A stretch of 64,000 bases of DNA from Bradymonadia bacterium (GCA_046290225.1 JBKAGE010000082.1:192001-256000); one strand, 5' to 3'; shown: positions 1,662 through 28,131, counted from the first letter of the stretch. Numbers and translations: made by a program. The notes: a model not told the origin generated them from the sequence alone.

Positions 1662-2249
1662 GTGGCACAGCACCGCATTGTCAGACAAATCTCTGAAGTC
1701 TTTGCCACCACCCTCGAAGATGGGGTCAAAGACATCCTGGGCCGCACCATTCAGGTGGTCACTGGCCCACCCTTGCGCGAAAAATTCACGCGTCTGCCCG
1801 CGTTGGGTGTCTACCTGTATCGGGTGGTCGTTCTGCCACAGCGCCGCGAGTTCTCGCCCACCCTGGTCACCACCATCGACCAGGAAGGCAACATCGAAGA
1901 GTACTTCCAGGATCCGTCTGTCTACTTGGGCCTCGATTACCTGATCAGCGCCTGGGCCGACGACGATCCCGAGCTACAAGAGCTGCTTGGTGCCGCCACC
2001 AGGGCCATGCTCATGCACCCGGTCTTCGAGGGCAGCACCCTCGAGGGCGACGCCTTCGACCCGGAAGATCGGGTGGTCATGCGCCCTGTGGAAGACCTGT
2101 CTGCAGAGTTTCTCATGTCACTCTGGCGTGGTTTTGGAGAACATCTGCGGCCCTCGGTGGCATATCGGGCCAAAGCATGGTTAGACTCGCCCCGCCGAGT
2201 CGCAGGATTCAAACGCGTGGGCTCCCGACAACTCGTCGTCGATCGGTGA
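1662..2249 (+). CDS. Pvc16/Afp16-like (DUF4255) tail terminator/cap protein
   Basis: LGVYLYRV, YLGLDYLISAW, LLGAATRAMLMHP and SLWRGFGEHLRPSVAY motifs typical of DUF4255. GTG at 1662 follows a GGAGA RBS; the gene precedes the sheath. Confidence 0.8.
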   Translation: MAQHRIVRQISEVFATTLEDGVKDILGRTIQVVTGPPLREKFTRLPALGVYLYRVVVLPQRREFSPTLVTTIDQEGNIEEYFQDPSVYLGLDYLISAWADDDPELQELLGAATRAMLMHPVFEGSTLEGDAFDPEDRVVMRPVEDLSAEFLMSLWRGFGEHLRPSVAYRAKAWLDSPRRVAGFKRVGSRQLVVDR

Positions 2250-2278
2250 GGGGAGCAACCCATGTGTGAGCGCATCGC

Positions 2279-2320
2279 TGATAACGAACAGTTGATAACG
2301 AACTGCTGAGAACAAACCGC
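2279..2320 (+). repeat. Three 14-bp degenerate direct repeats upstream of the sheath gene
   Basis: tgataacgaacagt / tgataacgaactgc / tgagaacaaaccgc. Confidence 0.6.
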
Positions 2321-2337
2321 CGAGAGAGGAAGAGGCA

Positions 2338-3498
2338 ATGAAGGAGTATTTGTCCCCAGGTGTCTACGTCGAAGAGGTGCCCAGTGCCAGCAAGCCCATC
2401 GAGGCGGTGGGCACCAGCACTGTGGGCTTCATCGGTGTAAGTTCCCGGGGCCCGGTCAACGTGCCGGTCCTGTGCCCCAACTGGAGCACCTTCACCAAGA
2501 ACTTCGGTGACTTCAAAGACGGCGGCCACTTCGCTCATGCTGTCTACGGCTTCTTCAACAACGGCGGCTCCCGCTGCTTCGTGCTCAACGTCGGCGACGA
2601 CGAGGCCAACAAAGACAAGAACCACGCCAGCCTCGCCGCTCGCTTCCTCGGCGAAGACAAGGGCCCCGGCGCCCGTAGCGGTCTGTTCTGCTTCGAGGAG
2701 ATCGAGGAGATCTCCATCGTCGTGGCCCCCGGCCAGACCGATCCTGCCATTCAGGATGCCGTGCTGAGCCACTGCGAGAAGATGCGCTACCGCATGGCCA
2801 TCCTCGACTGCCCCGAGGTCATCGAGGAAGGCGGCGTCGACAAGCTGCCCAAGCCCCGTGACTCCAAGTACGGCGCCTACTACTTCCCCTGGATCCAGGT
2901 GTACGATCCCCAGGAGGGCGAGATCTTCGTGCCCCCCTCGGGCCACATGGCCGGCATCTACGCCCGCTCCGACGGTGAGCGCGGCGTGCACAAGGCCCCC
3001 GCCAACGAGGTGGTCCGCGGCGCCCTCGACCTCAAGTACCAGGTCACCAAGGGCGAGCAGGACATCCTCAACCCCAAGGGCATCAACTGCATCCGTTACT
3101 TCGACGGCCGCGGCATCCGCGTCTGGGGCGCCCGCACCATCTCGAGCGATCCCGAGTGGCGCTACGTGAACGTCCGCCGTCTGTTCAACATGGTGGAGAA
3201 GTCCATCGAGGACGGCACCCAGTGGGTGGTCTTCGAGCCCAACGATCAGACCCTCTGGAAGCGCGTGACCCGCAACATCACCGCCTTCCTCTTGCGGGTG
3301 TGGCGTGAGGGCGGCCTCTTCGGTGAGACCCCCGAGCAGGCCTTCTACGTGAAGTGCGACGCCGAGACCAACCCCCCGGAGGTCATCGACGCCGGCCAGC
3401 TCATCGTCGAGATCGGCATGTGCCCCACCAAGCCTGCCGAGTTCGTGATCTTCCGCATTGGCCAGATGCCCACCGGTGGTGACTCCATCGAGGGCTGA
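2338..3498 (+). CDS. Contractile tail sheath protein (short form)
   Basis: YLSPGVYVEEV N-terminus, FFNNGG, PPSGHMAGIYAR, VHKAPANE, VWGART, WRYVNVRR, WVVFEPN, PAEFVIFRI. Confidence 0.95.
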   Translation: MKEYLSPGVYVEEVPSASKPIEAVGTSTVGFIGVSSRGPVNVPVLCPNWSTFTKNFGDFKDGGHFAHAVYGFFNNGGSRCFVLNVGDDEANKDKNHASLAARFLGEDKGPGARSGLFCFEEIEEISIVVAPGQTDPAIQDAVLSHCEKMRYRMAILDCPEVIEEGGVDKLPKPRDSKYGAYYFPWIQVYDPQEGEIFVPPSGHMAGIYARSDGERGVHKAPANEVVRGALDLKYQVTKGEQDILNPKGINCIRYFDGRGIRVWGARTISSDPEWRYVNVRRLFNMVEKSIEDGTQWVVFEPNDQTLWKRVTRNITAFLLRVWREGGLFGETPEQAFYVKCDAETNPPEVIDAGQLIVEIGMCPTKPAEFVIFRIGQMPTGGDSIEG

Positions 3499-3857: not shown

Positions 3858-4313
3858 ATGGGGTTGTTCAGCGACAATCGCCGTAAGCACGATCACATCG
3901 GTAACTTCAACTTCAAGGTCGAGATCGACGGCGTCACCGTCGGCGCTTTCCGTAACGTCGAAGGCCTCGACGCGGAGACCGAGGTGGTGGAGTACCAGGA
4001 CGGCGACGACCTGCGCCTGCGCAAGCGCCCTGGTCGTACCAAGTACTCCGACATCACCCTCAAGCGTGGCTACATCTCCACCATGGAGCTCTGGGACTGG
4101 CGTAAGCGGGTGATGGACGGCGTGGTGCAGCGCAAGTCCGGCTCCATCGTCCTGTGTAACGACAAGGGCGACGAGGTCATGCGCTACAACTTCTATGATG
4201 GATGGCCCTCCAAGTGGAAGGGCTTCACCCTCGACGGTAAGGGTACTGACGCTGTGGTCGAGGAGATCTCCATCAGCCACGAGTACCTCGAGCGCGTCCA
4301 GGGCAGCAACTGA
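3858..4313 (+). CDS. Tail tube protein (T4 gp19-like)
   Basis: FNFKVEIDG, EYQDG, RPGRTKYSDITLKRG, LWDWR, RKSGSIVL, WPSKW. Confidence 0.95.
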   Translation: MGLFSDNRRKHDHIGNFNFKVEIDGVTVGAFRNVEGLDAETEVVEYQDGDDLRLRKRPGRTKYSDITLKRGYISTMELWDWRKRVMDGVVQRKSGSIVLCNDKGDEVMRYNFYDGWPSKWKGFTLDGKGTDAVVEEISISHEYLERVQGSN

Positions 4314-4541: not shown

Positions 4542-4913
4542 ATGGCGTTCCAGACGGAGTTCCCGTTCACCCTGCCCAAGGGCTACGTGGATCAGGACGG
4601 CAACCTGCATCGCGAAGGCGTGATGCGACTGGCCACCGCAAAAGACGAAATCGCACCTTTGCAGGACTACCGAGTTCAGCAGAACCGTGCGTACCTGGTC
4701 ATCATCTTGCTGTCTCGAGTCATCATCAAGCTCGGCAGCTTGAAATCAGTGAGTCCCAACACCATCGAGGGCCTGTTCTCTTCAGATCTGGCCTACCTGC
4801 AGGAGTTCTACCGGCGGGTCAACGAAGATGGTGGCGCGAAGCTCGAGACCACCTGTCCCGCCTGTGGGCATAAGTACGAGCTGGATCTGGGCACTGACAT
4901 GGGGGAATCCTGA
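4542..4913 (+). CDS. Tail assembly chaperone
   Basis: MAFQTEFPFTLPKGYVDQDG...GVMRLATAKDEI...DLAYLQEFYRRVN...CPACG, the typical eCIS chaperone. ATG at 4542 chosen over the TTG at 4380. Confidence 0.85.
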   Translation: MAFQTEFPFTLPKGYVDQDGNLHREGVMRLATAKDEIAPLQDYRVQQNRAYLVIILLSRVIIKLGSLKSVSPNTIEGLFSSDLAYLQEFYRRVNEDGGAKLETTCPACGHKYELDLGTDMGES

Positions 4914-5071
4914 GCTACCCCCTGGATCGTATTTTCCAGGAGGTAGCGTACATCGCCTATCACTTCCACTGGACCGCCGATGACATCCTCGCCATGGAGC
5001 ACCGCGAGCGTCAGATGTGGATCCGGGAGATTTCGGCCATCAACCGGGAGATCAATGACTCCCGCTCATAG
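4901..5071 (+). CDS. DUF6760-like chaperone extension, probably reached by -1 frameshift from the chaperone ORF
   Basis: The -1 frame reads GGILSYPLDRIFQEVAYIAYHFHWTADDILAMEHRERQMWIREISAINREINDSRS*. There is no ATG/GTG/TTG before the conserved core; GGGGGAA lies at 4901-4907. Confidence 0.8.
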   Translation, partial: GGILSYPLDRIFQEVAYIAYHFHWTADDILAMEHRERQMWIREISAINREINDSRS

Positions 5072-5087
5072 AGACTGACTGTTATTC

Positions 5088-6851
5088 ATGACCACAGTCC
5101 GCGCCCCCGGTGTTTACTACGAGCCCAGCGAGCAGCGTATTCCCCAGCTGAGCCTCGGGCGTACAGGTATGCCGGTGTTTCTCGGCGTCACCCGGCGGGG
5201 CCCGCTCGATCGGCCGGTCCGCATCACCAGCCTCAACCACTTTGAAGAGATCTTCGGAGAGCCCATCACCGATGGCTATCTGATCCCGTCGCTGACGGGC
5301 TTCTTCGACAATGGTGGTGACGAGTGCTACGTGCTCCGCATCGCCCGGGAGAAGGGCCGCCCGGGGGAAGATGTCGCCCTCACCTCGGAGATGGTGGCCC
5401 TCGATGGTGCGGGTTCAGAGGTCCTGCACATCGAGGCTCAGGATCCAGGCAGCTGGGGCAACCACCTGCGCATCACCCTGGCGCCCACACCTGATCCGCT
5501 GCGCACGTTTCTCACCCGAGACGGGGCGGCGGGTGATGCCACCCTGCAGGTGAAGACAACCCATGCCATGCAGGTGGGCACGCTCGTCGAGATCACTGAT
5601 GGTGAGTCGGCCCATTGGGCCCAGGTGAAAGACATCTCCGGCAAGATGCTCACGCTGAGCGAGGCCTTGCCCAAGGCATACAAGTCAGCGGCGCCGACCT
5701 ATGTGATCCCTCACACCTTCGATCTGCACGTGGCCGGCGCCTACGGTGAAGGGGCCGAGAGCTATACTCAGCTCTCGCTCCATGGCGCTTCGCTCCGCTT
5801 CGCCGAGCGGCTCATCAACAAGCAGAGTCGCCTCATCAAAATCCAGGTGATTCGCAACGGCTCGCCCTTGAGCCACAGCTTGCCCGTACCGGTGGCCCAT
5901 CAGCCCCTCGAAGGCGGCCAGGACGGTGTGGCCGATCTGGGCCCCGACGACTTCATCGGCTACGACCGGGGGCCACAGGCCCGCCGCGGCCTGTGGACTC
6001 TGGTGGAGCACCCGCAGATCGATCTGGTGGCGATCCCCGATCTCATGAGCGCCTACGAGCGCAGCGATCGCTTCAAGACCTTGCGCGACGTCGACGCCGT
6101 GCAAGAGGCGGCGATCACCCTCTGTGAAAATTCGCTCAACCGCTTCGCCATCCTCGATCTGCCCCCTGGGGGTGACTACGAAGAGGCGCTGCGCTGGCGA
6201 CGACAGTTCGACAGCCCGCACGCCGCCTTCTACTACCCCTGGGTGGTGGTCCTCGAAGGCGGTCGGCGACGGGCGGTGCCGCCTTCGGGTCACGTCGCCG
6301 GCATCTTCTCTCGGTGTGATCGCAACATCGGCATCCACAAGGCCCCGGCGAACGAGATCATCGAAGGTGTGGTCGATCTCGATGTTTTGCTGCAAGACGC
6401 CCACCTCGCTCTCTTGAACGAGGCAGGGGTGAACTGCCTCCGGGCCTTCGCCTCACGTGGCCTGCGGGTCTGGGGTGCGCGGACGGCGAGCAGCGAGGCG
6501 GAGTGGCGATACATCAGCGTCAGGCGCACGATGAGCGCCATCCACGCAGCCATCGATCAGGGGTGTCAGTGGGCGGTGTTCGAGCCTAACGGGCCGAGCC
6601 TGTGGAAACGACTTACCCGGCTGATCACGGGATTTCTCATGGACCTTCGAAGCCGGGGAATCCTTGCAGGGGAGCAGCCCGAAGAGGCTTTCTACGTGCG
6701 CTGTGACAACGAGACGAATCCCCCTGACGCCATCGACAACGGTATGTTGATCACCGAAATTGGTCTGGCCATCACTCGACCGGTGGAGTTCATCATTTTC
6801 CGACTCGCTCAGAGATTGGAAGATGAAGCACAGCAGTTGGAGGAGAGCTGA
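5088..6851 (+). CDS. Second contractile tail sheath protein (long form with insertion)
   Basis: APGVYYE, FFDNGG, PGSWGN, PPSGHVAG, HKAPANE, VWGART, WRYISVRR, WAVFEPN, PVEFIIFRL. Confidence 0.93.
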   Translation: MTTVRAPGVYYEPSEQRIPQLSLGRTGMPVFLGVTRRGPLDRPVRITSLNHFEEIFGEPITDGYLIPSLTGFFDNGGDECYVLRIAREKGRPGEDVALTSEMVALDGAGSEVLHIEAQDPGSWGNHLRITLAPTPDPLRTFLTRDGAAGDATLQVKTTHAMQVGTLVEITDGESAHWAQVKDISGKMLTLSEALPKAYKSAAPTYVIPHTFDLHVAGAYGEGAESYTQLSLHGASLRFAERLINKQSRLIKIQVIRNGSPLSHSLPVPVAHQPLEGGQDGVADLGPDDFIGYDRGPQARRGLWTLVEHPQIDLVAIPDLMSAYERSDRFKTLRDVDAVQEAAITLCENSLNRFAILDLPPGGDYEEALRWRRQFDSPHAAFYYPWVVVLEGGRRRAVPPSGHVAGIFSRCDRNIGIHKAPANEIIEGVVDLDVLLQDAHLALLNEAGVNCLRAFASRGLRVWGARTASSEAEWRYISVRRTMSAIHAAIDQGCQWAVFEPNGPSLWKRLTRLITGFLMDLRSRGILAGEQPEEAFYVRCDNETNPPDAIDNGMLITEIGLAITRPVEFIIFRLAQRLEDEAQQLEES

Positions 6852-6853: not shown

Positions 6854-7363
6854 ATGCGCAGAAGCAGGAGAAGTCGCGGCGGCAGCGGTGCTTCCGCTGG
6901 GAACAGCAGCGCGCCCACTCGAAACCCCGCCCTGGTCAGCGTTCAAAGCCGGCCCATGGGCAAGTTCCGCTTCAAGTTCGAGGTCGACGGCATCACCATG
7001 GCCCACTTTCAAAGCGTGACGGGGCTCGGCCACGAGATCGAGGTCCTCGAACAGCAAGAGGGCGGGGTCAACGAATACATGCACAAGCTCCCCGGCCAGG
7101 GGCGCTACTCCAACTTGGTGCTCAAGGTGGGCTGGGTCAGCACCCAGCTCGTCGAAGACTGGCACATGGGCTTCGCCCGCAACCCCAAAGGGGTTCAGCG
7201 CAAGACCGGCGCCCTCGTGCTCCTCGATGACGCGGGGCAAGAGGCAAAGCGCTGGGACTTCAAGGGCGCCTGGCCCGTGAAGTGGGAAGGCCCTGCCCCT
7301 GACACCAGCCAGAGCGCCATCGCGGTCGAGTCCATCGAGATCGCCTATGAGCAGCTGACCTGA
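6854..7363 (+). CDS. Second tail tube protein (gp19-like)
   Basis: FRFKFEVDG, QEGGVNEYMHKLPG, WPVKWEGP, AVESIEIAYE. Short basic N-terminal extension; alternative ATG at 6956. Confidence 0.9.
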   Translation: MRRSRRSRGGSGASAGNSSAPTRNPALVSVQSRPMGKFRFKFEVDGITMAHFQSVTGLGHEIEVLEQQEGGVNEYMHKLPGQGRYSNLVLKVGWVSTQLVEDWHMGFARNPKGVQRKTGALVLLDDAGQEAKRWDFKGAWPVKWEGPAPDTSQSAIAVESIEIAYEQLT

Positions 7364-7406: not shown

Positions 7407-10400
7407 ATGAGCGATTCTGGCATTGGGACGAGTGAAGGCACGTTGCGGGTCGGCGAGATTCTGCGCAGCCCCACGCCTGATCATGCCGACACCGGCCTGA
7501 TCTCGGCCATGACCGCCTTCTCGGGCGGCATCTCCACCCGACTCGAATCGTTCGGCATGGCCGCCGACACCGAGTCTGCGGGTGGCCTCGTGAATGATCT
7601 CGCCTCGCGCTGGGCTCTGCCCTCGGGCGCAGCCGCCTTCGAGGTCGTCGACGCTGACAGCTTCGACGACCTGCTGGTGGACTGGTCGGTCTCTGTAGAT
7701 GGCTACACCGATCTCATCTACGATCTGCCCCACTCCATCTATGTTGTCCCTGTCGATCCCGTAGAAGAGCCCACTGGCTTCCCGGCCCGCTCGGTGATGC
7801 CCCGCCGCACCGCAGCCCCGCGGCCTCAGCCGCCCCGTGGCGCCCTGGAGGCGGTAAAGGTGGCAGGCCGACGGCCCACCCCCTCGGCCCCTCGAGTGGT
7901 GAAGGAGCGCTGGAGAGCTACGGATGAAGCGGCCCCTGAGGGCCTGCTGAGCCCCTACCCTGCAGCCATGGGTCAGGCAGGTGCCATCGACAGCGCGCTG
8001 CTCCGCTTCCCCGATGCCCGGGCCGAGGTGCGTCAGGGCCAGCGACGGGCGGTGATCGTCGACAATGGGCCCAGCCCCCTCGCAGGTGCCGGGTGGTCTC
8101 CTCGAGCCTCCGGGACAGCACCAGCAGTGCGGGCAGCAGAGATGATCGCCGAGCGCAGCGCTCAGTTCGACCAGCTACAAACCCTCACGCCCCCCGCGGC
8201 GGCGGTGGGCTTCTGGCTGGTGGAGCCTGATGGCCCCACCACCCCAGGCGGCATCGAGCGGATGGCCACTGATCTGGCGGCAGAGCCCACAACCCGCGTG
8301 AGCGAGCTGGCCTATGACGCCCCGGTGATGACGGCTGTGCGCCCTCGAGCACCGATGGCGCAACAACACACCACGCGCCACCCTGGGCAATGGCAACGGA
8401 TCGGTGAGCGCGCAGTGACGCCGCTCCTCACCCGCCGCCCGCCCATCTCTGTACAGCCTGCTTCAGTGCAGCTTGCTTCAGGGCAATCCGCTTCAGGGCT
8501 GCCCGCCTCAGGGCTGCCCGCCTCAGTGCAGCAGGGCCCCTCTGCCACTGCGCCCGCTCAGGCCGGGCTTGCCGCTCAGCGCCCAACACTGAGCCCTGTG
8601 CTGCCACCGAGCCCCACGGCGCGTATGGGGCTGCCCGCCGATACACACAACGTCTCGGCTTCAGTACCCAGCACAGCAGTGAGTGCTGTGCCCCGGCTCA
8701 ACCCTGTGGCGCCGGCAGCGCTCTCTGCACCGCACCGGACATCTCCCATAGGCGCCAGGCGCGGTACCGCGATCAGTGATCGCATCGCCCCGCTCACCCG
8801 TCGGCCGTCCATGCCCGTCCGCCCGACGATGTCTTCCGCTGTGGCTCTGAGCGAGTCCGCCCTCGCAGCCCCTCAGGCATCGACCCCCTGGTGGTCCGAA
8901 GGCTGGCACGAGGCGCTCTCTGAAGAGCTGGTCAGCCCTCGGGCTGTCTCAGCGCCACAGGCTGCAGTCACACCAACTACAGTCACACCGGCCACAGCCT
9001 CTGCCATGGCCCCCCAGGCTCCACCGAGCGCCTCCACGAGCCCCTTGCAGCCGGTTCTTCAGCCAGCCCCCATGGCCGCCTCGGCGCTCAGTTCGATGAC
9101 GCGGAGCGCCTTTGTGCCCCGAGGGCTCAGCGGCGCGACGACCACGCGGCCTTCGATGCTGCCCATGGCCTCGGCAGAGCGCACCGCAGCATTCGCGCAG
9201 CCAGCAGCACGACGAGCAGTTGGCCAACCAGCTCACCTGAGCGCTGCGCCTCTCTCCCGCCTCACTTCACGGGGCGATACAGGCGTCTCTGAACTGTGGA
9301 CCGAGGCCCCGACGCCTGAGTTCTACCGTGCCCCCGCGTCGGCATCCCCGGCCTCTGCGGTGCAACACACCAACTCGACGTCGACCCCTGTGGCCCGACG
9401 TGCCTCAATGGCTCAAGCCACCGCTTCGCAACCTGGCACCTCGCAGCACAGCGCAGTCCGCCAGCAGGCCTTGACCGTAGCGAGCCAGCGCCCCATCTCG
9501 CGTAGCGCCGACAGAGGGCGTAAGGTTGCCGTATCGAGTTCGACGCCGGCAGTGACACCGAGCCTGACCTCGATCCGCGCCGTTGCCTCTGCAGCACATC
9601 GCGGTGAGTTCGTGCCTCAGCAGGCCCTTCAAGCCCAACAGCTTGCCGCCCTCGTAGAAGGGCAGGCCCTCGGCGGTCAGGTGGGCAGGCCCGCTTCGAG
9701 CCCCTGGCAGCGCCCAGGGTACGCACGGGCTGAGGGCACTCTGATCCGGGCAACGTCTGTGACCGGGCCTCAAGAGGCACACGCCATCACCCAGGCGCAT
9801 GCAGGCAACACCGGTCGTACGGTGATGCCCAGCCAGACTGTGGGCACACGCAACCCGACCATCAGCTCAGCGGCCGACGCTGTGGCCGTCCGTACTGCAG
9901 CCCCCTTCATGCCCGCCTCACTGGCAGCGACGACACCGGCAGGGGGCAGCACCTCTGAGGCGACTCTGCCGGGGCGAGCTCGACAATCTATGGGGATGAT
10001 CTCCATCGACCCGTCGACCACCAGCGCTCCGATGGGGACCGCAGTCCAGATGCCCGAGATCTTCCGCGGCCTGGGCAGCGTGCACCAGCAACGCTTGGAG
10101 ACGTTCCTCGCCCAAGTGGGGCTCGCACCCATGCGCGAGGAGGCCAACCTCTCATTGGGTCAGGTGGCTGAGATCACTGAGGGCCTGCATCTGAGCGACG
10201 ACATGCTCGGTGGAGGCACTGGCGAGCTGGTTCAGCCCATCGCCGAAGCCACCACCGACCCCTCGGAGCCAGGGGCGGCCCAACCTCAGCAGCGCAGAGC
10301 GCGTCAACGCACAGAAGCCGCCACCCAAACAGCGGTCACCCGAGCCACTGAGCGCCTCAGCGCCACCATCGCGGCCCACACCGCTCAGCTTGCCGCCAGC

Positions 10401-12056: not shown

Positions 12057-12715
12057 TCAAGCAGGCGATCCAGAGCATGGTCCCCGGGACCAACAAGCTC
12101 AGCATCACCCCCCTCGACGGGCGGCGGGCGCTCCAGCCTGTGGAGGCCCTGTTCAACCCCAAAGAGTACAGCATCCAGAAGAGCGTGCCCTGGAACCCCC
12201 AGGCCGCCGCGGGTCTCGACGCCCCCGACATGCAGTTCACCACCGGTCAGGGCGAGACTTTGAGCCTCGAGCTGTTCTTCGACACCTATGAGAAGGGGTC
12301 GAACGTCAAGGCCCACACCGACGCGCTGCACAACCTCGCCCTCATCGACCCCACCTTGCACCGGCCGCCGCTGGTCATGGCCTCGTGGGGCAAGCTGAGG
12401 TTCCAGGGTGTCATCGAGTCGATCAGCCACCGGTTCACCATGTTCCTCGAAGACGGCACCCCCGTGCGGGCCACCTGCACCGTGAGCCTGCGGGAAGCCC
12501 GCACCGCCACCCAGCAGAACCAGGAGGCCCCTCGGGAGAGCCCTGATCACGCCAAGCTGCACGCCGTGCGTCGTGGCGAGACGCTGCAGGCCATCGCCGC
12601 CGAGGAATACGAAGATCCGTCCGAGTGGCGGCGCATCGCCGACGCCAACGGCATCGATGATCCGCTGCGCCTCGAGCCCGGCACCAAGCTGATCATCCCG
12701 CCGATCCTGAGCTGA
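12047..12715 (+). CDS. CIS tube-initiator protein with C-terminal LysM domain (Afp7-like)
   Basis: LFNPKEY, LELFFDT, HRPP..WG, MFLEDGTPVRA; LysM HAVRRGETLQAIA...WRRIADANGIDDP...PGTKLIIP. Confidence 0.9.
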   Translation: MGLIKQAIQSMVPGTNKLSITPLDGRRALQPVEALFNPKEYSIQKSVPWNPQAAAGLDAPDMQFTTGQGETLSLELFFDTYEKGSNVKAHTDALHNLALIDPTLHRPPLVMASWGKLRFQGVIESISHRFTMFLEDGTPVRATCTVSLREARTATQQNQEAPRESPDHAKLHAVRRGETLQAIAAEEYEDPSEWRRIADANGIDDPLRLEPGTKLIIPPILS

Positions 12716-19133: not shown

Positions 19134-20696
19134 ATGGGGTCCGGTGAGAGCTTTAAGCGCATCAACTTCTTCAAGGGCTTCCTGGCCACCGAAGAAGACT
19201 TCAACGATGCCGAGAAATACCACCTCGAGAAGCGGCACCTGCACAACCAGGCCTTTCACGCCCCTGGCGTCGTTGCGCACCACGGCGACGGCCTGAGGGT
19301 CACCAGCCGCGGTCGCGGTGATCTCTCCATCGAGATCGGTGCTGGCTATGCCATCGATGGCTTCGGTCGGGACATCTACGTGCCCGACAAGCAGATCAAG
19401 ACCATCAGCGCCGGTGACTTCAAGCTGCCCCAGACCATCTATGTGGTGGTGAAGTACCTCGAGGAGATGACCGACTTCATCCGGTACAAGGAAGTGCCCG
19501 ACTACCAGGGTCACCGCCGGATCCAGGAAGGCTTCAAGGTCGAGTTCACCAACGTCGAGCCCGACGTGAACCACGAGATCGAGCTCGCCCGCATCTACCT
19601 CGAAAAGGGCGCCAAGCGGATCATCGACGCCAAGGATCCGAACAAGCCCGAGGCCAACGAGATCGATCTGCGCTTCGTGCGCTACGCCGGCACCGTGGGC
19701 ATGTTCTTGAACAGCACGATCAGGGTCCGCCTGCGCGAGGCCATCGCGTTCCAGAAGCGGGTGTTCTCACACCTCTCCCGGGTGAAGAAGATCATCAGCG
19801 CCCAAGACGCCTTCCACGCGCTGATCACCCTGGACATGCTCACGCTCACGGCCCACATCGGCCACGACAACATCTGGGAGCTGCTCATCGAGCTCGCCAA
19901 GCTCGAGTGGGACGTGGTGAACGAGGCCGAGAGCCGGGTGCCCGATCTGAGCGCCCGCCGCGAGTTCACCAGTTTCAAGAAGAACATCGAGATCATGTAC
20001 AACTTCGCCGCGGAGAAGCGGCGGACCGACGAAGGCCTCGACAACGTCATCACCTACATGATGAAGACCTGCGAGAGCATCGAGATGCTGCTCGACCAGA
20101 TGCGCTCTTCGGAGATCGAGGTGAAGGCCATGGCCGACGCCCCGCAGGAGAGCAAGATCACCGAGTACATCGAGGGCGGCATCACCTTCGAGGAGCTCAA
20201 GGTCTACTCCAAAGAGTTCACCGAGAGCCTCATCGTCGACGGTCGCGAGTGGGTGCTTGTGGACATGATCGACATCCGCGACGAGCAGAACGAGAACGAT
20301 CACGAGTTCCGCATCAAAGAGGCCAAGGACACGTACCGCAGCCGCCAGAAGCTGCGGTACCCCGACGGCACCGTCGTCGAAGACCAGGGCATCGCCCACG
20401 AGGGCGGCTACTCAGAGTTCAAGGTCAAGAACGTCACTCCCCACCAGGATCTGGTCATGATCCGCCGCATGGATTACGTGCGGGCCGACTACCAGGCCGA
20501 GATTCAGGTGAACGGCGCCCGTATGGACCGGATCATGGACTGCGCCGGGGCCGACAAGAAGTTCCGGTGGCGCAACTGGCCCTACGTGATCCCCGCCCAG
20601 CACATCAGCTCCACGGTGATCAGCATCAAGCAGGTGATGCTCACCGCCGACCGGGACATCAACATGTTCCACTACTGGTTCTACCAGCCCAAGTGA
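19134..20696 (+). CDS. Fibre/baseplate-attachment protein with helical middle and C-terminal beta-sandwich domain
   Basis: N-terminal RINFFKG..TEEDF..AEKYH...PGVV..GLRV...GYAIDGFGRDIYV typical of CIS fibre-attachment domains. C-terminal RRMD..A.IQVNG...RW...IP...YWFY resembles glycan-binding accessory domains. Confidence 0.65.
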   Translation: MGSGESFKRINFFKGFLATEEDFNDAEKYHLEKRHLHNQAFHAPGVVAHHGDGLRVTSRGRGDLSIEIGAGYAIDGFGRDIYVPDKQIKTISAGDFKLPQTIYVVVKYLEEMTDFIRYKEVPDYQGHRRIQEGFKVEFTNVEPDVNHEIELARIYLEKGAKRIIDAKDPNKPEANEIDLRFVRYAGTVGMFLNSTIRVRLREAIAFQKRVFSHLSRVKKIISAQDAFHALITLDMLTLTAHIGHDNIWELLIELAKLEWDVVNEAESRVPDLSARREFTSFKKNIEIMYNFAAEKRRTDEGLDNVITYMMKTCESIEMLLDQMRSSEIEVKAMADAPQESKITEYIEGGITFEELKVYSKEFTESLIVDGREWVLVDMIDIRDEQNENDHEFRIKEAKDTYRSRQKLRYPDGTVVEDQGIAHEGGYSEFKVKNVTPHQDLVMIRRMDYVRADYQAEIQVNGARMDRIMDCAGADKKFRWRNWPYVIPAQHISSTVISIKQVMLTADRDINMFHYWFYQPK

Positions 20697-20836: not shown

Positions 20837-21619
20837 ATGATGTTCCGTGATCCACGCAAAGTCGTCCAAGATCGGATCAACATGCGGATCCAGAACGCCC
20901 AGATGCGGGCCAAGTCCCAAGTGCGTGGCGCTGGAGTCCGTGTCATCAGCGCAGGTGAGCGCAAGGCAAAGCAGGCCACCGACAACGCCAAAGCGAAAGC
21001 CAAAGGCAAAGGCCAAAAAGCCGCCCCAAACCAGGCGCCTCAGCAGGCGACTGCAGAAAAGAAGAAGTTCAGTTTGTGGCCCTTCGGTAAGAACAAGCAA
21101 GACGCAGCTGGCCAGGCGCCCGCCTGCCACAGCTGTGGCCAGGCCATCGACCCTTCATGGGAGCTGTGCCCTTACTGCGGCACCAGCCTCGCCGAGGCCC
21201 CGGCCCCTCAAGCGCAAATGCAGGCAGCCCCCGTACCGGGTGCGCCGGTCCCTGCCATGCCCCAGATGACCGGGAACAAGACCCAGGCCATCAACCTCGA
21301 CGAGCTCGCCGGTCCCCAGAAGATGGTGGTGGGCTGGCTGGTCATCATGGAGGGCAACGAGAAGGGCCGTGACTTCAGGCTCTACGAGGGCCAGAACAGC
21401 ATCGGCGCCGCCGCTGACTGCAACATCGTGGTCAACGACGAGTACCTCTCGGCTCACCACGCCAGCATCCGATTCGACGATGGGCGCTACGAGTTGATCG
21501 ACAAAGACTCCACCAACGGGTGCTTCCTCAACGAGAAGCGCATCTCCCGCGAGGAGCTCGTCGACAACGACACCATCCGGCTGGGACGCACCCATCTCCG
21601 CTTCAAGGCGATCTATTGA
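20837..21619 (+). CDS. Zinc-ribbon + FHA domain protein
   Basis: CHSC...CPYCG; GWLVIMEG..GRDFRL..G.NSIG...DEYLSAHHASI...DKDSTNGCFLN...DTIRLG. Confidence 0.88.
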   Translation: MMFRDPRKVVQDRINMRIQNAQMRAKSQVRGAGVRVISAGERKAKQATDNAKAKAKGKGQKAAPNQAPQQATAEKKKFSLWPFGKNKQDAAGQAPACHSCGQAIDPSWELCPYCGTSLAEAPAPQAQMQAAPVPGAPVPAMPQMTGNKTQAINLDELAGPQKMVVGWLVIMEGNEKGRDFRLYEGQNSIGAAADCNIVVNDEYLSAHHASIRFDDGRYELIDKDSTNGCFLNEKRISREELVDNDTIRLGRTHLRFKAIY

Positions 21620-21683: not shown

Positions 21684-23246
21684 ATGCGATCCATCATGTC
21701 TGGTCTGCGCGCAGGCCTTCTCTGCAGCGCCCCACTGCTCATCACCACGCTGATCGTCTCGGGCCTGATCATCACCGGCCTCGGCACCCCGGCCTACAGC
21801 CAGGGCAAGCAGCTCGCCAGCACCACCCAGCTGCGTCTCGACGCGGTGGACACCAGCAAGGGCAAAAAGGGCGAGCTGGTGCTCTTCGGCTCGTTCCTCA
21901 ACGAGTTTGGTCAGTCGGTGCCGGCGCTGAAGTCGGAGTACTGGACGATCCAGCTCGACGGCGAGCCCCTGGAGCTCGACCCCGAGTCCCTCACGGTGAA
22001 GTCGCTCAAGGACAGCGACGAGGGCGTCTACGTGGTGCTTGTGGCCATGGCCTGCTGCAACATGATGGCCGAGGAAGAGCAGTTCGCCGCCATCAAGAAG
22101 GGCATCGAGGAGATCCTCAACGGCCTGGGCAGCAAGGACCAGTCGGCGGTGGTGCTCTATCAAGAGGGCGTGCTCAAGACCAGCAGCCTCAACCCCTCTC
22201 ACGAAGAGGCGGTGGTCTGGCTCGGTCAGAAGGGCGAGGCCGACGGCACCGGGCCTCAGTTCTTCAGCGCCATCGAGCAGGCCCTGAAGTTCTTCCCGCC
22301 AGAGTTCGGCACCCTCAACTCGAACCGCCACATCATCGTCATCAGCGATGGCGACGATGTCGATCGCATCACCGATCGTTCAAAGACCCGCGAGAAGCTC
22401 AAGGCCCTCAAGACCAACGCCAACGCCAAGAAGGTGAAGGTGCACTCCATCGGCCTGGTCTTCGAGGGGCAGCAATCGGAGACCCTGGCCAATCTGCGCA
22501 CCCTCTCCGGTGGTACTGGCGGTGTCTATCGCGAGTCGAAGGACTTCACCCGCACCCGAGATCACCTCTCGGCCCTCAAGAGCCAGCTGCTCGAGCAGAA
22601 CGTGCTCTACGTGAAGACCAACGACTTCGAAGGCGAGAAGGACATCACCTACACCCTCTCGGTGAAGCACCCCAGCTCCGGCAAGGTGTTCAACGCCCTG
22701 GCCCCAGTCGTCGAGTACACCCCCGAGGTCGAGACGAACCTGTGGCGGAACATCCTGCTCATCAGCGGTGGCGTCGTGGGCCTCGGCCTCTTCGGCTGGC
22801 TGGGCATGATCCTTGTGCGCCGCATGGGCAACCGCGACACCGGCGAGGTCTTCGTCGACGCCGGCGAGGAAACCCGGGAGTGCGAGCAGTGCGGCAACAC
22901 CATCCCCGTAGACTGGATGGTCTGTAAATACTGCGAGGCCCTGCCCCACAAGGGCCGCCTCACGGTCATCAGCACGGGCGATCTCAACGGCCGGGTGTGG
23001 TTCATCAAAGAGTCTCTGGTGAACATCGGCCGCTCCGATGGGAACCACATCATGATCCCCGACACCACGGTGTCGAAGCGCCACGCGGGTATCAAGGTGG
23101 ACAATGGCCGCTTCGAGCTGGCGGACTTCGGCAGCACCTCGGGGGTGCTGGTGAACGGGCAACGCATCACCAAACGCTTCCTCAAAGACGGCGATGCGAT
23201 CCACGTGGGCGGCATCGAGCTCGAATTCAAGCTCAAGAAGAGCTGA
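21684..23246 (+). CDS. Membrane protein: exported VWA domain, TM helix, cytoplasmic zinc ribbon + FHA domain
   Basis: Hydrophobic N-terminus; IIVISDG and VHSIGL...TGG (VWA); TM ILLISGGVVGLGLFGWLGMILV; CEQC..CKYC; IGRS...VSKRHA...DFGSTSGVLVNG (FHA). Confidence 0.85.
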   Translation: MRSIMSGLRAGLLCSAPLLITTLIVSGLIITGLGTPAYSQGKQLASTTQLRLDAVDTSKGKKGELVLFGSFLNEFGQSVPALKSEYWTIQLDGEPLELDPESLTVKSLKDSDEGVYVVLVAMACCNMMAEEEQFAAIKKGIEEILNGLGSKDQSAVVLYQEGVLKTSSLNPSHEEAVVWLGQKGEADGTGPQFFSAIEQALKFFPPEFGTLNSNRHIIVISDGDDVDRITDRSKTREKLKALKTNANAKKVKVHSIGLVFEGQQSETLANLRTLSGGTGGVYRESKDFTRTRDHLSALKSQLLEQNVLYVKTNDFEGEKDITYTLSVKHPSSGKVFNALAPVVEYTPEVETNLWRNILLISGGVVGLGLFGWLGMILVRRMGNRDTGEVFVDAGEETRECEQCGNTIPVDWMVCKYCEALPHKGRLTVISTGDLNGRVWFIKESLVNIGRSDGNHIMIPDTTVSKRHAGIKVDNGRFELADFGSTSGVLVNGQRITKRFLKDGDAIHVGGIELEFKLKKS

Positions 23247-23341: not shown

Positions 23342-24529
23342 GTGTCGCGTATCCCGCTCATTGGCTGGCTGCTGCTCGTCTTCATGGTGGGGGCGCCCTC
23401 ATCGGTGCTCGCTCAGGGTGCCCCGCAAGGTGCCGAAGAAGAGGTCGATCCTGCCTTCACACAGACCCTCAGTGAAGGGCAAGCTGCGTTCAAAGCCGGT
23501 CGGTTCAAAGAAGCCGCAGAGCTCTTTCGTCAGGCCTTCGAGATCGACCCTCGAGGCAACCTGCTCTTCAACGTGGCCATTTGCTACGAGAAGGCCGGGG
23601 ACACGATCGCTGCGGTGAAGTTCTACGAGCGCTTCATCGCTGCGGTGCCCAACGCCCGGAATCGGCCTCAGGTGCAACAGCAGATCGTGGCCCTCAAGGC
23701 TTCCCTCGCCGACAAATACGTCGAGGTGCAGGTCACCACTGCGCCCAAGGGGGCCTACGTCTTCATCGACTCGAAGTCTCAGGGCACCATCGGCGCCACC
23801 CCCACCACCCTCAAGCTGCTTCCCGGCAGCTACACCCTCATCGTCGAGAAGCCAGACTACGAGACCGTCAAGGTGCCCCTCGACGTCGCCGAGGGGCAGC
23901 CGCAGCAGCTCGAGTATGTGCTGGTGAACTCTCAGAAGGTGGGCTCGGTACGGCTGCGGATCCCCGAGAAAGGGGCCTCAGTCATGGTGGATGGCAAGAA
24001 CATCGGCGTGAGCCCCATCAAAGATCCGATCCGGCTGCCCCAAGGGCCCCACGAGATCAGCGTGCTCAAGCCCGGTCTCACCCCCTGGAAGAAGAACGTC
24101 AACGTCTTCGCGGGTCAGAACAGCGTCGTCACGGTGACTTTTCGCGAGGAAGACGCCTTCGACCCGCTCGGAGATGCGGGCAGTTCTGGCGGGGGTGACA
24201 AGCTCTGGGCCTACGTCACCATGGGCACCGGCGTGGCCATGATCGCCGGTGGCGTGTTCACGGGCTTGTCCGCCCAGTCTCTTCACGACGATCTCACCGC
24301 GAAGCGCGAGAACCAGGAGCTCATCGCTCAGAGCGACATTGATCTGGGCAACACCCTGGTTACCACCACCAACATCCTGCTCATCGGAGGCACTCTCGCC
24401 GCTGCCGGTGGCGCAGTGTGGTGGTACCTCAGCGATGACGAAGTCGACCCTGACGGCGAGATCCTCACCGGCGGGTTCTTCGCTTCGCCCGACGGCACCG
24501 CCGTCTTCCACCTCAAAGGGACTTTCTGA
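23342..24529 (+). CDS. TPR + two PEGA domain exported/membrane protein
   Basis: Signal peptide; TPR (GQAAFKAGRFKEAAELFRQAF..LLFNVAICYE); two PEGA units (P.GA.V..D...IG.TP); C-terminal hydrophobic segments. Confidence 0.85.
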   Translation: MSRIPLIGWLLLVFMVGAPSSVLAQGAPQGAEEEVDPAFTQTLSEGQAAFKAGRFKEAAELFRQAFEIDPRGNLLFNVAICYEKAGDTIAAVKFYERFIAAVPNARNRPQVQQQIVALKASLADKYVEVQVTTAPKGAYVFIDSKSQGTIGATPTTLKLLPGSYTLIVEKPDYETVKVPLDVAEGQPQQLEYVLVNSQKVGSVRLRIPEKGASVMVDGKNIGVSPIKDPIRLPQGPHEISVLKPGLTPWKKNVNVFAGQNSVVTVTFREEDAFDPLGDAGSSGGGDKLWAYVTMGTGVAMIAGGVFTGLSAQSLHDDLTAKRENQELIAQSDIDLGNTLVTTTNILLIGGTLAAAGGAVWWYLSDDEVDPDGEILTGGFFASPDGTAVFHLKGTF

Positions 24530-27500
24530 TGTCGCGCTCTCTCGCGGGGTGGCTGATCGCAAGCCTGGCCACCACCGCCGGCTGCTCTCTCGATTTCGAC
24601 GAGTTCACCGAAGACACCAACACCCCCGACGTGCAGTTCACCGAGCCCGACCTGGGCCCGACCCCCGATGTCGGGCCCATGCCCGACGAAGGGCCCATGC
24701 CCGACATGGTGGTGGATCAGCCCGATGTCGGGCCCATGCCCGACATGATGGTCCTCGACACGGACGGCGACGGCATCAACGACGTCGACGACAACTGCCC
24801 TGATGTGGAGAACCCGGATCAGCTCGACGGCGACGGCGACATGATCGGCGATCTCTGCGACGCAGATCTGGACGGTGACGGCCTCGAGAACGGCATCGAC
24901 AACTGTCCGAACGTGAGCAACCCCGCTCAGGCCGACCTCGATCGCGACGAGATCGGCGATGTCTGTGACGACGACGCCGACAACGATGGCCTCACAGGCG
25001 AGCAGGAGCTGCTTCAGGGCCTCGATCCGCTGCGTCCTGACACGGATGCCGACGGATACCTCGACGGCGCCGACAATTGCCCTCAGGCCCCGGACCGTGT
25101 GGGCGGCGATGCCGATGGTGACGGCTATGGCGACGCCTGTGACACCGACGCCGACGGCGACGCGGTGCCCAACTGGCGGGACAACTGCCCCTTCACCCCG
25201 AACCCCGATCAAGCGCTCGTCGAGGTCGAAGAAGGAGAGCCGCCCTCAAGGCGGGGTGCTGCCTGTGCGGACGACGCCGACAACGACGGGATCCTCGACG
25301 ACGCCGACAACTGCCCGTATGCGCCCAACCCCATCCAGGGCATCAGCCCTTGTGAGCCCCGGTTCGCGCCCCAGACCTATGGGCGCTCTGTCAACGCGCT
25401 CTATCGCAGCGGCGAGACGGTGTACGCCGGCACCTCTGGCGGTGAGCTGCGGGTGCAGGGCGACGACATCAGCCTCTACACCAACGCCGACGGCCTCGCC
25501 GGCAACAACGTCACTTCTGTGGTCCGCGACGCCGACGGTCGGCGCTGGCTGACCACCGACGACGGCCTCACGGTGATCCGGCCCGATGGGTTCCGCATGT
25601 CGATGCGGGCCTCTGATCCTGCAGGCAGCTTCACGGGCACCCTCAACGACGTAGCCGTCGACATCGAGAACGAGCGTGTGTGGGTGGGCACCGACGAGGG
25701 CCTCTTCCGCTTCGAATCGGGCGCCTGGGTCCCAACGGGGAACTTCATCAACGTGCGAGACCTCTGGCTCGAAACCACCGAAGAGGGCGATCGCGTGCTC
25801 TGGGTGGCCGACGAGGTGGCGGTGAACCGCATCACTGATCCCGCCAGCATCGTGGCGATCTTCGGACTCAACCCACTCATCCCGCCTTTCAAGGGTGTGG
25901 TGGGCGACGCAGACGACTACACCTGGATCCTTTCTGGCAACGGGGCGGGTCGCCTCGCCGAGAACGACACGCTCGTCGAAGATCGAACCTACATCGGCTT
26001 CGACGCCCGGGATCTGACCGACGCCCCTGATGGGGCACGCTACCTGGCCACCGAGGCCGGCGTCCGCCGGATCGACGCCGAGGGTCGCTTGTTCCCCGCT
26101 GGCACCCGAAACCTGCCCGACGCCGACATCCGCGCCCTCGCCACGGACGCTGACGGCAACCGCTGGGCAGCGACCGGTCGAGGCCTCGTGGTGCTCGACG
26201 GCTACTTCTCTCTCTTTGCCTCTGGAAACAACGGCCTCGCCAACCCCTGCGTCAACGCTTCGATCCGCGCCGAGGGCCTCATCTGGATGGGCACCGACGA
26301 CGGGCTCTTCACGCTGCCTGCCGACGGCACCCCTGTGGAGCAGGCCCGGGCTGACTTGCCGAGCACCAACATCTACACCCTTCAGCGGGTGGGCGACGAG
26401 GTCTGGGCCGGCACCACCGAGGGCATCGCTCGATATGATCTGGTGGGTGTCTACCTCGGCAGTGTCCGCGCTGAGGATGGGATCCCGGCAGGCACCATCG
26501 GCGACATCGAGCCCGGCAGCGAAGGTCAGGTCTGGGTGGGCAGCACCGAGTCGGGCCTCGCCCGCGGTGATCTGCAGGAAGACGGCACCTGGGCGTGGAC
26601 CCTCTACACCCGCGAAGCGCAGGATCGCCTGCCCAGCGACGTGATCGAAGGCCTCTCGTGGTATGGCGGTACAGGCCAGCTCTGGATCGCCACCGACAAT
26701 GGCCTCGGGCTCTACACCTCTGGTGAGGGCTTCCAGCCCCCCGTCCCCCAGCTCGTGGGGATCCCCCTCACCGACGTGGTCGTCGACGGTGACGGCAACC
26801 CCTACGCCGGCACGACAGCCTACCCAGCCGCAGCCCAGGGCCTGGGCGTCGCTGCACGCACCCCCATCGACGAAGAAGGTGGCGGCGGAGATTGGGTGTT
26901 CCTGCGCCGTGGTAACGCCGCATGGCCCACCTTCACCACCACCGACGAGGTGGAAGATCTCGCCCATGACGGGCGCTACCTGTGGGTGATGCTCGACGCC
27001 GGCCGCAGCACCCGCGGGGGCTGGCTCGCACGGATCCCCACCCCCATCGACGAGGGCCAGCTCCCAGAGGGTGTGGTCTTCGATACACTCAACGCCGATC
27101 TCCCCGCCACGGTGGGCAATTCCGCCCACTACAGCGAAGGCGAGTTGCACCTGGCTTACTGTGGTGATGACGCTCGCCCAGGTGGCGTCACTGTCATTGA
27201 CGGCGGCGGCCTCATCGAGCGTGATCTCTCCACCTATCAGGGGCTCGCCAACGATGGCGATGGCGTCTCCCTCACCCTCGATCACACTGGCGCGCCACTC
27301 TTCGTCGCTCGGACAGAAGAAGGCCTCGAGGCCTGGACCCTCAGCGCCGAGAGCCCCTACCGCGCCCCCTACGAGCTCGATCGGAACTCCGTGCGCAACG
27401 CCTTGCCTCAGGGTTGTGCCCTGCCTCCGGGCGGCACTCACCTGTGGTGTGTGCTCCAAGGCCGCGGCGTCGGTCGTCGAGATCCGGTCTCCGAGCAGTG

Positions 27501-28131
27501 GACCGTCTATCTGACCAACGAAGACATCAGGGCCGTAGCCCCTGACAGCGACACCACCGCCTGGGTGGCCACCGGCGCAGGGGTGCGACGCATCAGCGGA
27601 GAGGGCACGCCTCAGCTCTTCAACCAGGCGAGCACCAATGGTGGGTTGCCCAGCGACGATGTTCAGGCCATCGCCATCCTCGATGACCAGGTCTACGCCG
27701 GCACCACCAATGGGCTGGGTGTGTACGATCCTGGTGCCGAGACCGAGTGGACTGCAGTGGGCCCTGAGCAGGGCCTCGATCAGCCCAATGTCACCCATTT
27801 GGCAATTCAGCTCGAGGGTCGGGTGTGGATCGGCACCGGTGACGGGCTCTACCTGCTCATCTCCGGCCTGCCCATCGAAGACTTCACCCTCGAAGACGGC
27901 CTGCCCAGCACCGAGATCACCAGCCTCACCACAGGGCCTGACAACAGCATCCTCGTCGGCACGCGCTCAGGGCTCACCCTCGGCGCATCTGTAGGCGGGC
28001 TCTGGGATTTCGAGACCAGCTACGGCTTCGTCGATGGTCAGCCCGGCCACGCGGTGTACGACATCGTGGTTGGCCGCGATGGTGATATCTGGGTCCGCTC
28101 GAACGACGGCGTCGCCCGTCTCGTGCGCTGA
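24529..28131 (+). CDS. Lipoprotein with thrombospondin type-3 Ca-binding repeats and multi-bladed beta-propeller (Reg_prop-like)
   Basis: Lipobox TAGC; repeated DNCP..NP.Q.D.D.D..GD.CD; many W(V/I)GT..GL and GLPS..V/I blades. Confidence 0.85.
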   Translation: MSRSLAGWLIASLATTAGCSLDFDEFTEDTNTPDVQFTEPDLGPTPDVGPMPDEGPMPDMVVDQPDVGPMPDMMVLDTDGDGINDVDDNCPDVENPDQLDGDGDMIGDLCDADLDGDGLENGIDNCPNVSNPAQADLDRDEIGDVCDDDADNDGLTGEQELLQGLDPLRPDTDADGYLDGADNCPQAPDRVGGDADGDGYGDACDTDADGDAVPNWRDNCPFTPNPDQALVEVEEGEPPSRRGAACADDADNDGILDDADNCPYAPNPIQGISPCEPRFAPQTYGRSVNALYRSGETVYAGTSGGELRVQGDDISLYTNADGLAGNNVTSVVRDADGRRWLTTDDGLTVIRPDGFRMSMRASDPAGSFTGTLNDVAVDIENERVWVGTDEGLFRFESGAWVPTGNFINVRDLWLETTEEGDRVLWVADEVAVNRITDPASIVAIFGLNPLIPPFKGVVGDADDYTWILSGNGAGRLAENDTLVEDRTYIGFDARDLTDAPDGARYLATEAGVRRIDAEGRLFPAGTRNLPDADIRALATDADGNRWAATGRGLVVLDGYFSLFASGNNGLANPCVNASIRAEGLIWMGTDDGLFTLPADGTPVEQARADLPSTNIYTLQRVGDEVWAGTTEGIARYDLVGVYLGSVRAEDGIPAGTIGDIEPGSEGQVWVGSTESGLARGDLQEDGTWAWTLYTREAQDRLPSDVIEGLSWYGGTGQLWIATDNGLGLYTSGEGFQPPVPQLVGIPLTDVVVDGDGNPYAGTTAYPAAAQGLGVAARTPIDEEGGGGDWVFLRRGNAAWPTFTTTDEVEDLAHDGRYLWVMLDAGRSTRGGWLARIPTPIDEGQLPEGVVFDTLNADLPATVGNSAHYSEGELHLAYCGDDARPGGVTVIDGGGLIERDLSTYQGLANDGDGVSLTLDHTGAPLFVARTEEGLEAWTLSAESPYRAPYELDRNSVRNALPQGCALPPGGTHLWCVLQGRGVGRRDPVSEQWTVYLTNEDIRAVAPDSDTTAWVATGAGVRRISGEGTPQLFNQASTNGGLPSDDVQAIAILDDQVYAGTTNGLGVYDPGAETEWTAVGPEQGLDQPNVTHLAIQLEGRVWIGTGDGLYLLISGLPIEDFTLEDGLPSTEITSLTTGPDNSILVGTRSGLTLGASVGGLWDFETSYGFVDGQPGHAVYDIVVGRDGDIWVRSNDGVARLVR

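Follow-up and report, generated by a model that had tools for sequence, protein, structure and literature searches.

Whether a contractile tail operon that shows no recognisable spike, PAAR tip or AAA+ ATPase, and that runs on into genes for FHA proteins, belongs to a complete contractile injection system (CIS), and where such a machine would act, is the question raised by a stretch of 64,000 nucleotides from Bradymonadia bacterium (GCA_046290225.1, JBKAGE010000082.1:192001-256000), hereafter the window. In our numbering the window is G000:C82:192001-256000 (G-numbers denote genomes, C-numbers contigs and L-numbers fetched loci), and its own genome, G000, is an assembly of 8.58 Mb that is 99.4% complete. 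Tail and baseplate genes (1662 to 20696) are followed here by two FHA genes (FHA1 and FHA2), a TPR-PEGA gene and a TSP3 gene. Our results suggest that the system is very probably complete but dispersed over the genome, and that the FHA pair are true parts of it. We give an even chance to the reading that the operon encodes the tail of an injector that is docked on the producer's own inner membrane and shoots a three-chain spike, armed with a predicted antibacterial Rhs toxin, into touching cells. What stands out most is found beyond the window: three conserved spike genes, one of them fused to a swappable PAAR-Rhs warhead.

The 27 open reading frames (ORFs) of the window were scanned against domain families (Pfam and, for some, NCBIfam or PHROG). 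All genes named in the original prediction were recovered on the + strand (Table 1), together with two that it does not mention, a tail assembly chaperone and a double Zn-ribbon gene, the tail and baseplate genes being confirmed by Pfam, and the reported lack of phage head genes was borne out, as no head family was detected in the 27 ORFs and no terminase in the genome, where the terminase ATPase family was searched. Parts of the extracellular CIS (eCIS) type of the CIS superfamily (Chen 2019) present in the locus are Afp1/5, 2/3/4, 7, 9, 11 and 16. Lysis genes, AAA+ ATPase, spike and PAAR had been described as unrecognisable, which holds for the window (no spike OB-fold, PAAR, AAA+, holin or endolysin) but not for the spike, PAAR and AAA+ genes of the genome. 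These were found at other loci (C64, C78 and C4), and their presence there is one half of what the original prediction had itself named as its refutation. Two full WHD-AAA+ ATPase genes (Afp15 type) are located on C78 and C4, and the Afp8 equivalent is split, with the hub encoded in the window and the spikes at C64. Hub and spikes correspond to two halves of one VgrG-related model, and a fused OB-fold is absent in 34/34 related loci with a hub match. The position normally held by the spike is occupied in the window by a Zn-ribbon gene, which is tandem in the three-spike family and single copy in one-spike lineages (L048, L053, L055, L057, L085); look-alikes of its product are unnamed Myxococcota clusters. 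A tblastn search found a single CIS in the genome, in which neither TssC (type VI secretion system, T6SS, sheath) nor TssM was found and which does not qualify as carrying a canonical T6SS (i-iii).

The distribution of these genes was followed in 61 genomes (G000 and 60 relatives), the families f1, f4, f5 and f7 among them. Counting orthologues with 75% identity or more, 29 of the 61 genomes are sheath-positive; 20 are in f1, and the 11 positive genomes of f4/f5/f7 are those with the ATPase. The WHD-AAA+ ATPase is present in 29/29 genomes with a sheath orthologue, in three others without that sheath match and in 0/29 of the remainder, reaching 4-18 copies in f4, f5 and f7, and ATPase paralogues flank eCIS_core genes in two relatives. 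As a side observation, three genomes (G032, G037, G046; L161-L172) carry 11-18 scattered ATPase copies, some of which stand before eCIS_core proteins and one after a calpain-like gene. In the window's own genome, a stand-alone eCIS_core (DUF4157) gene (G000:C34:226751-227482) lies after a 574-aa gene without an assigned role, far from the CIS.

The predicted linkage of the FHA genes to the CIS was upheld by adjacency and co-occurrence across Myxococcota. Among 201 genomes of this phylum, a set that overlaps the 61, FHA1 was found in 43 of the 48 with a gene for the head of the fibre-slot protein (encoded just upstream of FHA1) and in 0/153 without it, and lies within 2.3 kb of that gene in 31/43. 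FHA1 and FHA2 each occur in 27/29 sheath-positive genomes and in 0/29 ATPase-negative ones. From 69 loci of the genome collection, those with a partial gene or a short flank (15) were set aside and 54 kept; FHA1 is within 1.8 kb of the fibre-slot gene in 34 of these, and FHA2 within 3.5 kb in 27/49 with longer flanks. Directly after the fibre-slot gene, FHA1 is found in 14/21 f1 genomes (11 judged from loci, three from coordinates). The FHA2 domain order (signal/transmembrane segment (TM), VWA, TM, FHA) is kept in distant lineages. At two distant loci of non-myxobacterial type (L149:6141-10046 and L151:14956-15342), FHA genes also follow the fibre-slot gene, at L149 as a kinase-TM-Zn-ribbon-FHA fusion, and in G040 the VWA-TM-FHA gene adjoins the chaperone gene. 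The caveat that, given a hairpin and a weak promoter at 20.70-20.79 kb, the FHA genes could be a separate unit was not borne out: the hairpin is no stabler than shuffled sequences (z = -0.98; 37/200 shuffles as stable), and a consensus scan returned no + strand promoter or terminator. The 140-base gap before FHA1 is within the range of the other operon gaps.

Control by phosphorylation, as originally proposed, fared less well. In canonical FHA domains, an Arg after the first conserved Gly binds the phosphate. This Arg is absent in the window's FHA1, in 35/35 FHA1 homologues (Thr or Ala instead) and in 30/30 FHA2 homologues (Ser or Ala instead), the window's own FHA2 being an exception that has it, and is retained in 23 of the 32 FHA-like domains of the same genome. 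Since the homologues lack the conserved Arg, canonical phosphothreonine gating is doubtful. The S-x-x-H and N-G motifs are nearly invariant in both alignments (the window FHA2 has S for N), FHA2 retains S-[KR]-R-H in 27/30, and a T-x-x-I/V motif stands about 15 residues ahead of the FHA fold in 35/35 FHA1 sequences. Such a motif resembles an FHA ligand as in GarA/OdhI, and because it is invariant, a phospho-switch is still conceivable. A scaffold role with possible tuning hence fits the aligned sequences better than canonical gating. A complex prediction of FHA1, FHA2 and the fibre-slot head gave no verdict either way (score 0.00).

The same residues bear on the original prediction's view of a cytoplasmic, phosphorylation-gated CIS that acts inside its producer, as in Streptomyces. 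The conserved T-x-x-I/V and S-[KR]-R-H motifs, the kinase-TM-FHA fusion at L149 and the closest solved sheath and baseplate J, which are from Streptomyces, speak for this view; the missing Arg in both sets of homologues, set against its retention in most FHA-like domains of the genome (and in the window's FHA2), speaks against it. Moreover, a purely intracellular, self-directed role fits poorly because the polymorphic spike toxins described below precede likely immunity genes and thus point outward, and we regard it as improbable.

The spikes are encoded in one operon at G000:C64:33977-44379, which opens with a 211-aa gene and continues with spikes A (343 aa) and B (362 aa), DUF2169, spike C (1837 aa) and a 292-aa, likely immunity gene; A, B and C are gp5-type OB-fold proteins. 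Spike C consists of an OB-fold, a beta-rich needle, a PAAR-like domain, a predicted TM stretch, DUF6531, an Rhs core and a variable tip. No direct match to a PAAR Pfam family was found anywhere in the genome, and the domain in spike C is not of the DUF4150/PIPY Pfam family. A profile of its residues 353-420 (nine sequences) retrieved 28 proteins from 1.84 billion, stand-alone PAAR proteins among them, and of the 16 weaker matches scanned, 11 hit PAAR_motif at E<0.01, seven of them above the Pfam cut-off. An AF2 model of residues 201-430 (pLDDT, the per-residue model confidence, 42.6) was too poor to confirm PAAR and was not used; an Atlas search with the PAAR-like part gave a best score of 0.82, a lead only, and a word-index search with the PAAR alignment returned a single fragment. 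As a side observation, the 211-aa coiled-coil/beta protein (L031:9312-9947), which has no family match, heads the spike operon in most f1 loci.

The cassette follows the CIS. At least three CIS-type OB-folds are present in 18/20 sheath-positive f1 genomes, including six without a TssC match, and one each in the 11 positive f4/f5/f7 genomes; in G049, this one spike gene and the fibre-slot gene are about 1.3 kb apart. DUF2169 occurs in 19/61 genomes, all of them CIS-positive f1. TssC, found in 15/61, does not follow the cassette, which is absent from the two T6SS-positive, CIS-negative genomes; the candidate explanation of the cassette as a T6SS part was therefore rejected, given also that neither TssC nor TssM was found in the window's genome. 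In a tree of 40 spikes from the fetched loci, a subset of all OB-fold matches (11 A, 11 B, 12 C and six single), A (98/95), B (100/97) and C (100/98) each come out as one supported clade, split internally in the same way, and by this tree the three clades are old. All 10 loci of relatives that contain A keep the order A-B-DUF2169, and in six of them a complete C comes immediately after. The beta-helix (needle) regions of A, B and C end within about 15 alignment columns of each other, and only C runs on into PAAR. G013 has a single gene each for A and B but four for C, the C copies being identical over the first 640-951 aa and differing in their tips. Among 12 tips, matches to nuclease, deaminase or Ntox families (E<0.001) were obtained for five and no match for six, and one of two downstream genes scanned encodes SUKH-3.

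A spike is a trimer with one PAAR. The simplest reading is hence an A:B:C trimer, and we consider it probable that A, B and C build a heterotrimeric spike with one swappable toxin. Mixed VgrG trimers are known from T6SS, as are phages with separate genes for hub and spike. If all three enter one heterotrimer, the needle would carry exactly one PAAR-TM-Rhs-toxin. The main rival is a replacement model after the Tvp loci, in which an OB-fold/beta-prism TvpC templates the spike and is then replaced (PMC13373197, accessible text): A and B would be TvpC-like scaffolds swapped out during assembly or, in a variant of this rival, all three would be alternative homotrimers. The order spike, spike-like, DUF2169 and PAAR-effector recalls the Tvp loci as described there, DUF6484 matches on A, B and C, although below cut-off and inside the OB-fold, recall them too, and single-spike lineages manage with one gene (11/11); the six cassette proteins gave no pentapeptide match of the kind expected for TvpB in a Tvp class II/III accessory system. 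TvpC, however, is described as short, whereas A and B equal the needle part of C in length; a C homotrimer would hold three PAAR-Rhs units per tip; and G013 keeps A and B single while C multiplies. We hold this rival to be less probable than the heterotrimer.

Where the machine fires is a question that turns largely on the fibre-slot protein (520 aa). Of its 836 homologues, the best 120 are almost all full-length, with identities of at least 45%, and its closest relatives are from Myxococcota, Myxococcales and Bradymonadia bacterium. No sequence match was found in the PDB, where searches with two alignments (A2 and A6) returned nothing significant, and the N-terminus of the protein matches CIS13 at E 3e-13, below cut-off. 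In the predicted model (pLDDT 88.5), residues 3-315 match TssK and IglD (Foldseek E 1e-5 for TssK; Z 10.2 for IglD, root-mean-square deviation (rmsd) 11.8 over 239 aligned residues) and residues 373-520 match CBM35/CBM6 (CBM35: Z 10.8, rmsd 2.8, 125 aligned). In T6SS, TssK connects the baseplate to the membrane complex. The TssK-like fold, FHA2 as a predicted single-pass membrane protein locked to the system, and nearest solved sheaths from systems that work at the producer's membrane support the envelope docking suggested originally; docked firing itself we hold to be evenly poised.

The alternative is a released eCIS with scattered genes, in which the 520-aa protein would serve as a short fibre of the eBAP3 type, its CBM-like head recognising a glycan of the target, and in which the FHA pair would only regulate assembly or release. 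The cap, the tape-measure-like gene, the AAA+ ATPase and the eCIS_core gene are all eCIS traits and favour it, as do the CBM-like head and the lack of a conserved envelope channel. Receptor-binding tips are expected to be variable, and here the head (57% mean identity, 118 homologues) is better conserved than the neck (37%), which argues against it, as do the membrane protein FHA2, the nearest solved relatives and the lack of a lysis gene in the window (genome-wide, one holin family was searched). We consider release rather unlikely.

Several points count against a docked injector with an FHA pair and a toxin-bearing three-chain spike. The CBM-like head itself (Z about 10.8) is one of them; the TssK/IglD match has 8-12% identity and an rmsd of 12-24; and the TssK-like eBAP3 proteins behind Tail_P2_I are, in the accessible text of PMC12923769, tail fibres of extracellular systems. 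Because that paper treats such proteins as fibres, a TssK-like fold is compatible with a docked or a released mode. How a CIS acts does not follow from its close relatives (PMC12998442, accessible text), and the system has no trans-envelope or outer-membrane channel conserved along with it, the TPR-PEGA and TSP3 genes being limited to one family. FHA1 is separated from the fibre-slot gene in 12/43 phylum genomes and away from it in 7/21 f1 genomes (FHA1 and FHA2 are still together there), the pair is split in a gut lineage, Myxococcota are rich in FHA genes (32 FHA-like domains in G000), and the co-occurrence counts include kin, which are not independent, and use profiles derived from loci that hold both genes. 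Two of 20 f1 genomes (G014, G026) have two spike genes only, the tip in G000 has a sub-threshold 'Cytotoxic' match (E 0.01), and the 292-aa gene downstream has no family match.

Among solved structures, the sheath scores highest against two Streptomyces entries (453 and 442 bits), then Halogeometricum 9EZM (427), and at most 191 against all others; a place in lineage II (subtype IId) would be tentative on this ranking of sheath and baseplate J scores against solved structures. The Streptomyces coelicolor cytoplasmic CIS (subtype IId; 9GTP, 9GTR, 9GTS; PMC12237407, accessible text), from which 9GTP and 9GTS derive, is alike in its sheath and baseplate J, its Tail_P2_I-type Cis12 wedge, and a bitopic membrane protein gene just after the baseplate genes. 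It has one VgrG-like Cis8 spike, no fibre gene, the bitopic adaptor CisA on which it depends, and the producer as target, whereas here we find a hub-only gene, a distant triple spike with fused PAAR-Rhs, a TssK-like protein, the FHA pair and a diderm host. The Halogeometricum borinquense archaeal T6SS-like CIS (9EZM; PMC11566945, accessible text) has the next closest sheath and an eCIS-type gene set, is membrane-docked and contact-dependent, with toxin-immunity pairs partly at other loci, and has Cis12/Cis13 as proposed feet; it differs in having no outer membrane to cross, a putative anchor with six TMs, and no triple spike mentioned in the text. The eBAP3/Tail_P2_I eCIS fibres (PMC12923769, accessible text) share the gene position behind Tail_P2_I and the TssK-like shoulder, but have varied C-terminal modules where the fibre-slot protein is conserved over its whole length. 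T6SS VgrG-PAAR-Rhs spikes with DUF2169/Tvp chaperones (PMC11883445, PMC13373197, accessible texts) resemble the cassette in DUF2169 beside a PAAR-type effector, an Rhs with variable tip and an immunity-like gene downstream; here no TssC or TssM was found, the spikes lack the gp27 part and PAAR is fused to the spike chain. The Myxococcus Kil system (PMC8460266, accessible text), a myxobacterial contact-killing machine rich in FHA proteins, is an analogy only, being a Tad pilus with no contractile tail. 'FHA' is absent from the main texts of PMC12923769, PMC6899500, PMC8213781, PMC12210884, PMC12237407 and PMC12998442, and no paper on this system was found by title or abstract start, in a search that left most subscription literature outside, while eCIS survey tables may list its operons.

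Returning to a docked injector, the machine would work as follows. Hub, wedges, tubes and sheaths would assemble in the cytoplasm, the 1549-aa protein setting the length and Pvc16 capping the tail. Spike chains A, B and C would form one heterotrimer, DUF2169 serving as chaperone of PAAR; C would be the swappable warhead, and the next gene would protect the producer. The WHD-AAA+ ATPases would load further cargo such as DUF4157 proteins. The TssK-like protein would link the wedge to the membrane protein FHA2 (VWA-TM-FHA) and to FHA1, with FHA1 and FHA2 serving above all as scaffolds; the link may be tuned when the invariant Thr of FHA1 is phosphorylated. In its broadest form, this would be a phylum-wide T6SS-like weapon built from eCIS parts and docked through FHA/VWA proteins, with an obligate A:B:C spike in one family, C being OB-fold-PAAR-Rhs, and one interchangeable warhead per shot, an extension that we put forward only tentatively.

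The machine, present in 48/201 of the phylum genomes sampled, may bear on how predatory Myxococcota other than Myxococcus kill. Surveys that look for a CIS locus by locus would miss one with genes scattered in this way. If the machine is docked, it would mark a further independent path from the eCIS gene set to T6SS-like firing, in diderm cells, and a three-chain spike with covalent PAAR-Rhs would, if true, resolve the 3:1 symmetry mismatch at the tip in a new way.

Both genes behind FHA2 had been placed in the module, which does not hold generally. The TPR-PEGA gene follows FHA2 directly only in the close group and travels with the FHA pair only in its own family, and it has 16 tblastn matches in its own genome; the TSP3 gene is found only in f1 (26/61 genomes), in 0/11 ATPase-positive genomes of f4/f5/f7, with weaker homologues in five f1 genomes without the ATPase. 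Confinement to one family excludes them as core parts, and their distribution marks them as family-level passengers. In 5/6 loci (L082-L085, L089), the single spike gene has an exported TPR(-PEGA) gene ahead of it; as an orthologue of the window gene, this TPR-PEGA gene was rejected in f4/f7, its best matches in G000 being other paralogues.

Table 1. Genes of the contractile tail operon and the block behind it (window positions)
Feature	Position	Strand	Basis
Pvc16/Cis16 cap (tail terminator)	1662..2249	+	Pfam Pvc16_N E 6e-24; ORF open from GTG 1632
Major sheath	2338..3498	+	Phage_sheath_1/1C; orthologues 75-86% identical in 28/60 relatives
Inner tube 1	3858..4313	+	Phage_T4_gp19 E 3e-40
Tail assembly chaperone, C-terminal Zn ribbon	4542..4913	+	phrog_508 E 2e-6; Phage_TAC_7 weak
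Slippery G-run and DUF6760 frame, likely -1 frameshift product of chaperone	4901..5071	+	DUF6760 E 2e-14
Second sheath	5088..6851	+	Pfam; 45% identity to sheath 1 across 288 aa
Tube 2	6854..7363	+	Phage_T4_gp19 E 3e-35
1549-aa low-complexity protein, tape-measure slot	7407..12056	+	role suggested by position
Tube initiator with LysM (Cis7)	12047..12715	+	CIS_tube E 1e-33, LysM
gp27-like hub (GPD) without spike domains	12777..13871	+	VgrG_rel positions 5-349 of 547 only
Tandem Zn-ribbon protein, spike slot	13910..14566	+	two copies of ~60-aa CxxC/CxxC unit
gp25 (Cis9)	14675..15082	+	GPW_gp25 E 1e-27
Baseplate J (Cis11)	15079..18087	+	TIGR02243 above cut-off; closest solved 9GTP, E 2e-74
PASTA-Tail_P2_I wedge protein (Cis12/TssG-like)	18156..19130	+	domain families; PASTA also in 2/2 distant homologues scanned
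Fibre-slot protein: TssK/IglD-like shoulder and neck, CBM35/CBM6-like head	19134..20696	+	predicted structure, Foldseek
FHA1: soluble, basic N-terminus, optional Zn ribbon, invariant T-x-x-I/V, FHA	20837..21619	+	
FHA2: signal/TM, VWA, TM, optional Zn ribbon, FHA	21684..23246	+	predicted single-pass membrane protein
TPR-PEGA exported protein	23342..24529	+	domain scan
TSP3-repeat/beta-propeller predicted lipoprotein, lipobox-like Cys	24529..28131	+	domain scan

Programmed frameshifts are known from phage tail chaperones. Just 5' of the chaperone stop lies a conserved slippery G-run (GGGGGAA in 14/21 loci, a 7-G run in the remaining seven), and DUF6760 is read in the -1 frame, for which 20/21 loci offer no in-frame ATG within 20 codons, so that a programmed -1 frameshift from chaperone to DUF6760 is likely from the reading frames. 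The 1549-aa protein has no Pfam, NCBIfam or PHROG match, is conserved only at both ends and is rich in Ala (17%), Ser (11%) and Pro (9%).

Among minor observations, the hub gene of G021 (L046:6604-7700) has a frameshift near codon 255, an assembly error or a pseudogene. In the small-genome lineage (f4; e.g., L059-L065, L085, L190-L197) the operon is in at least three pieces and still conserved, and more distant sheath loci in G015, G023, G013 and G021 indicate that a second CIS type coexists there. A divergent predicted lipoprotein gene of no known family (window 525-1436, - strand), preceded immediately by a paralogue, is kept 5' of Pvc16 in f1 and f7. Beyond the block, the window encodes a Ser/Thr kinase fused to an FGE-sulfatase domain (32019-33992, 4 kb away) and, on the - strand, a 4151-aa DUF11/TSP3/OmpA surface protein (36082-48537), the long ORFs opposite being its shadows.

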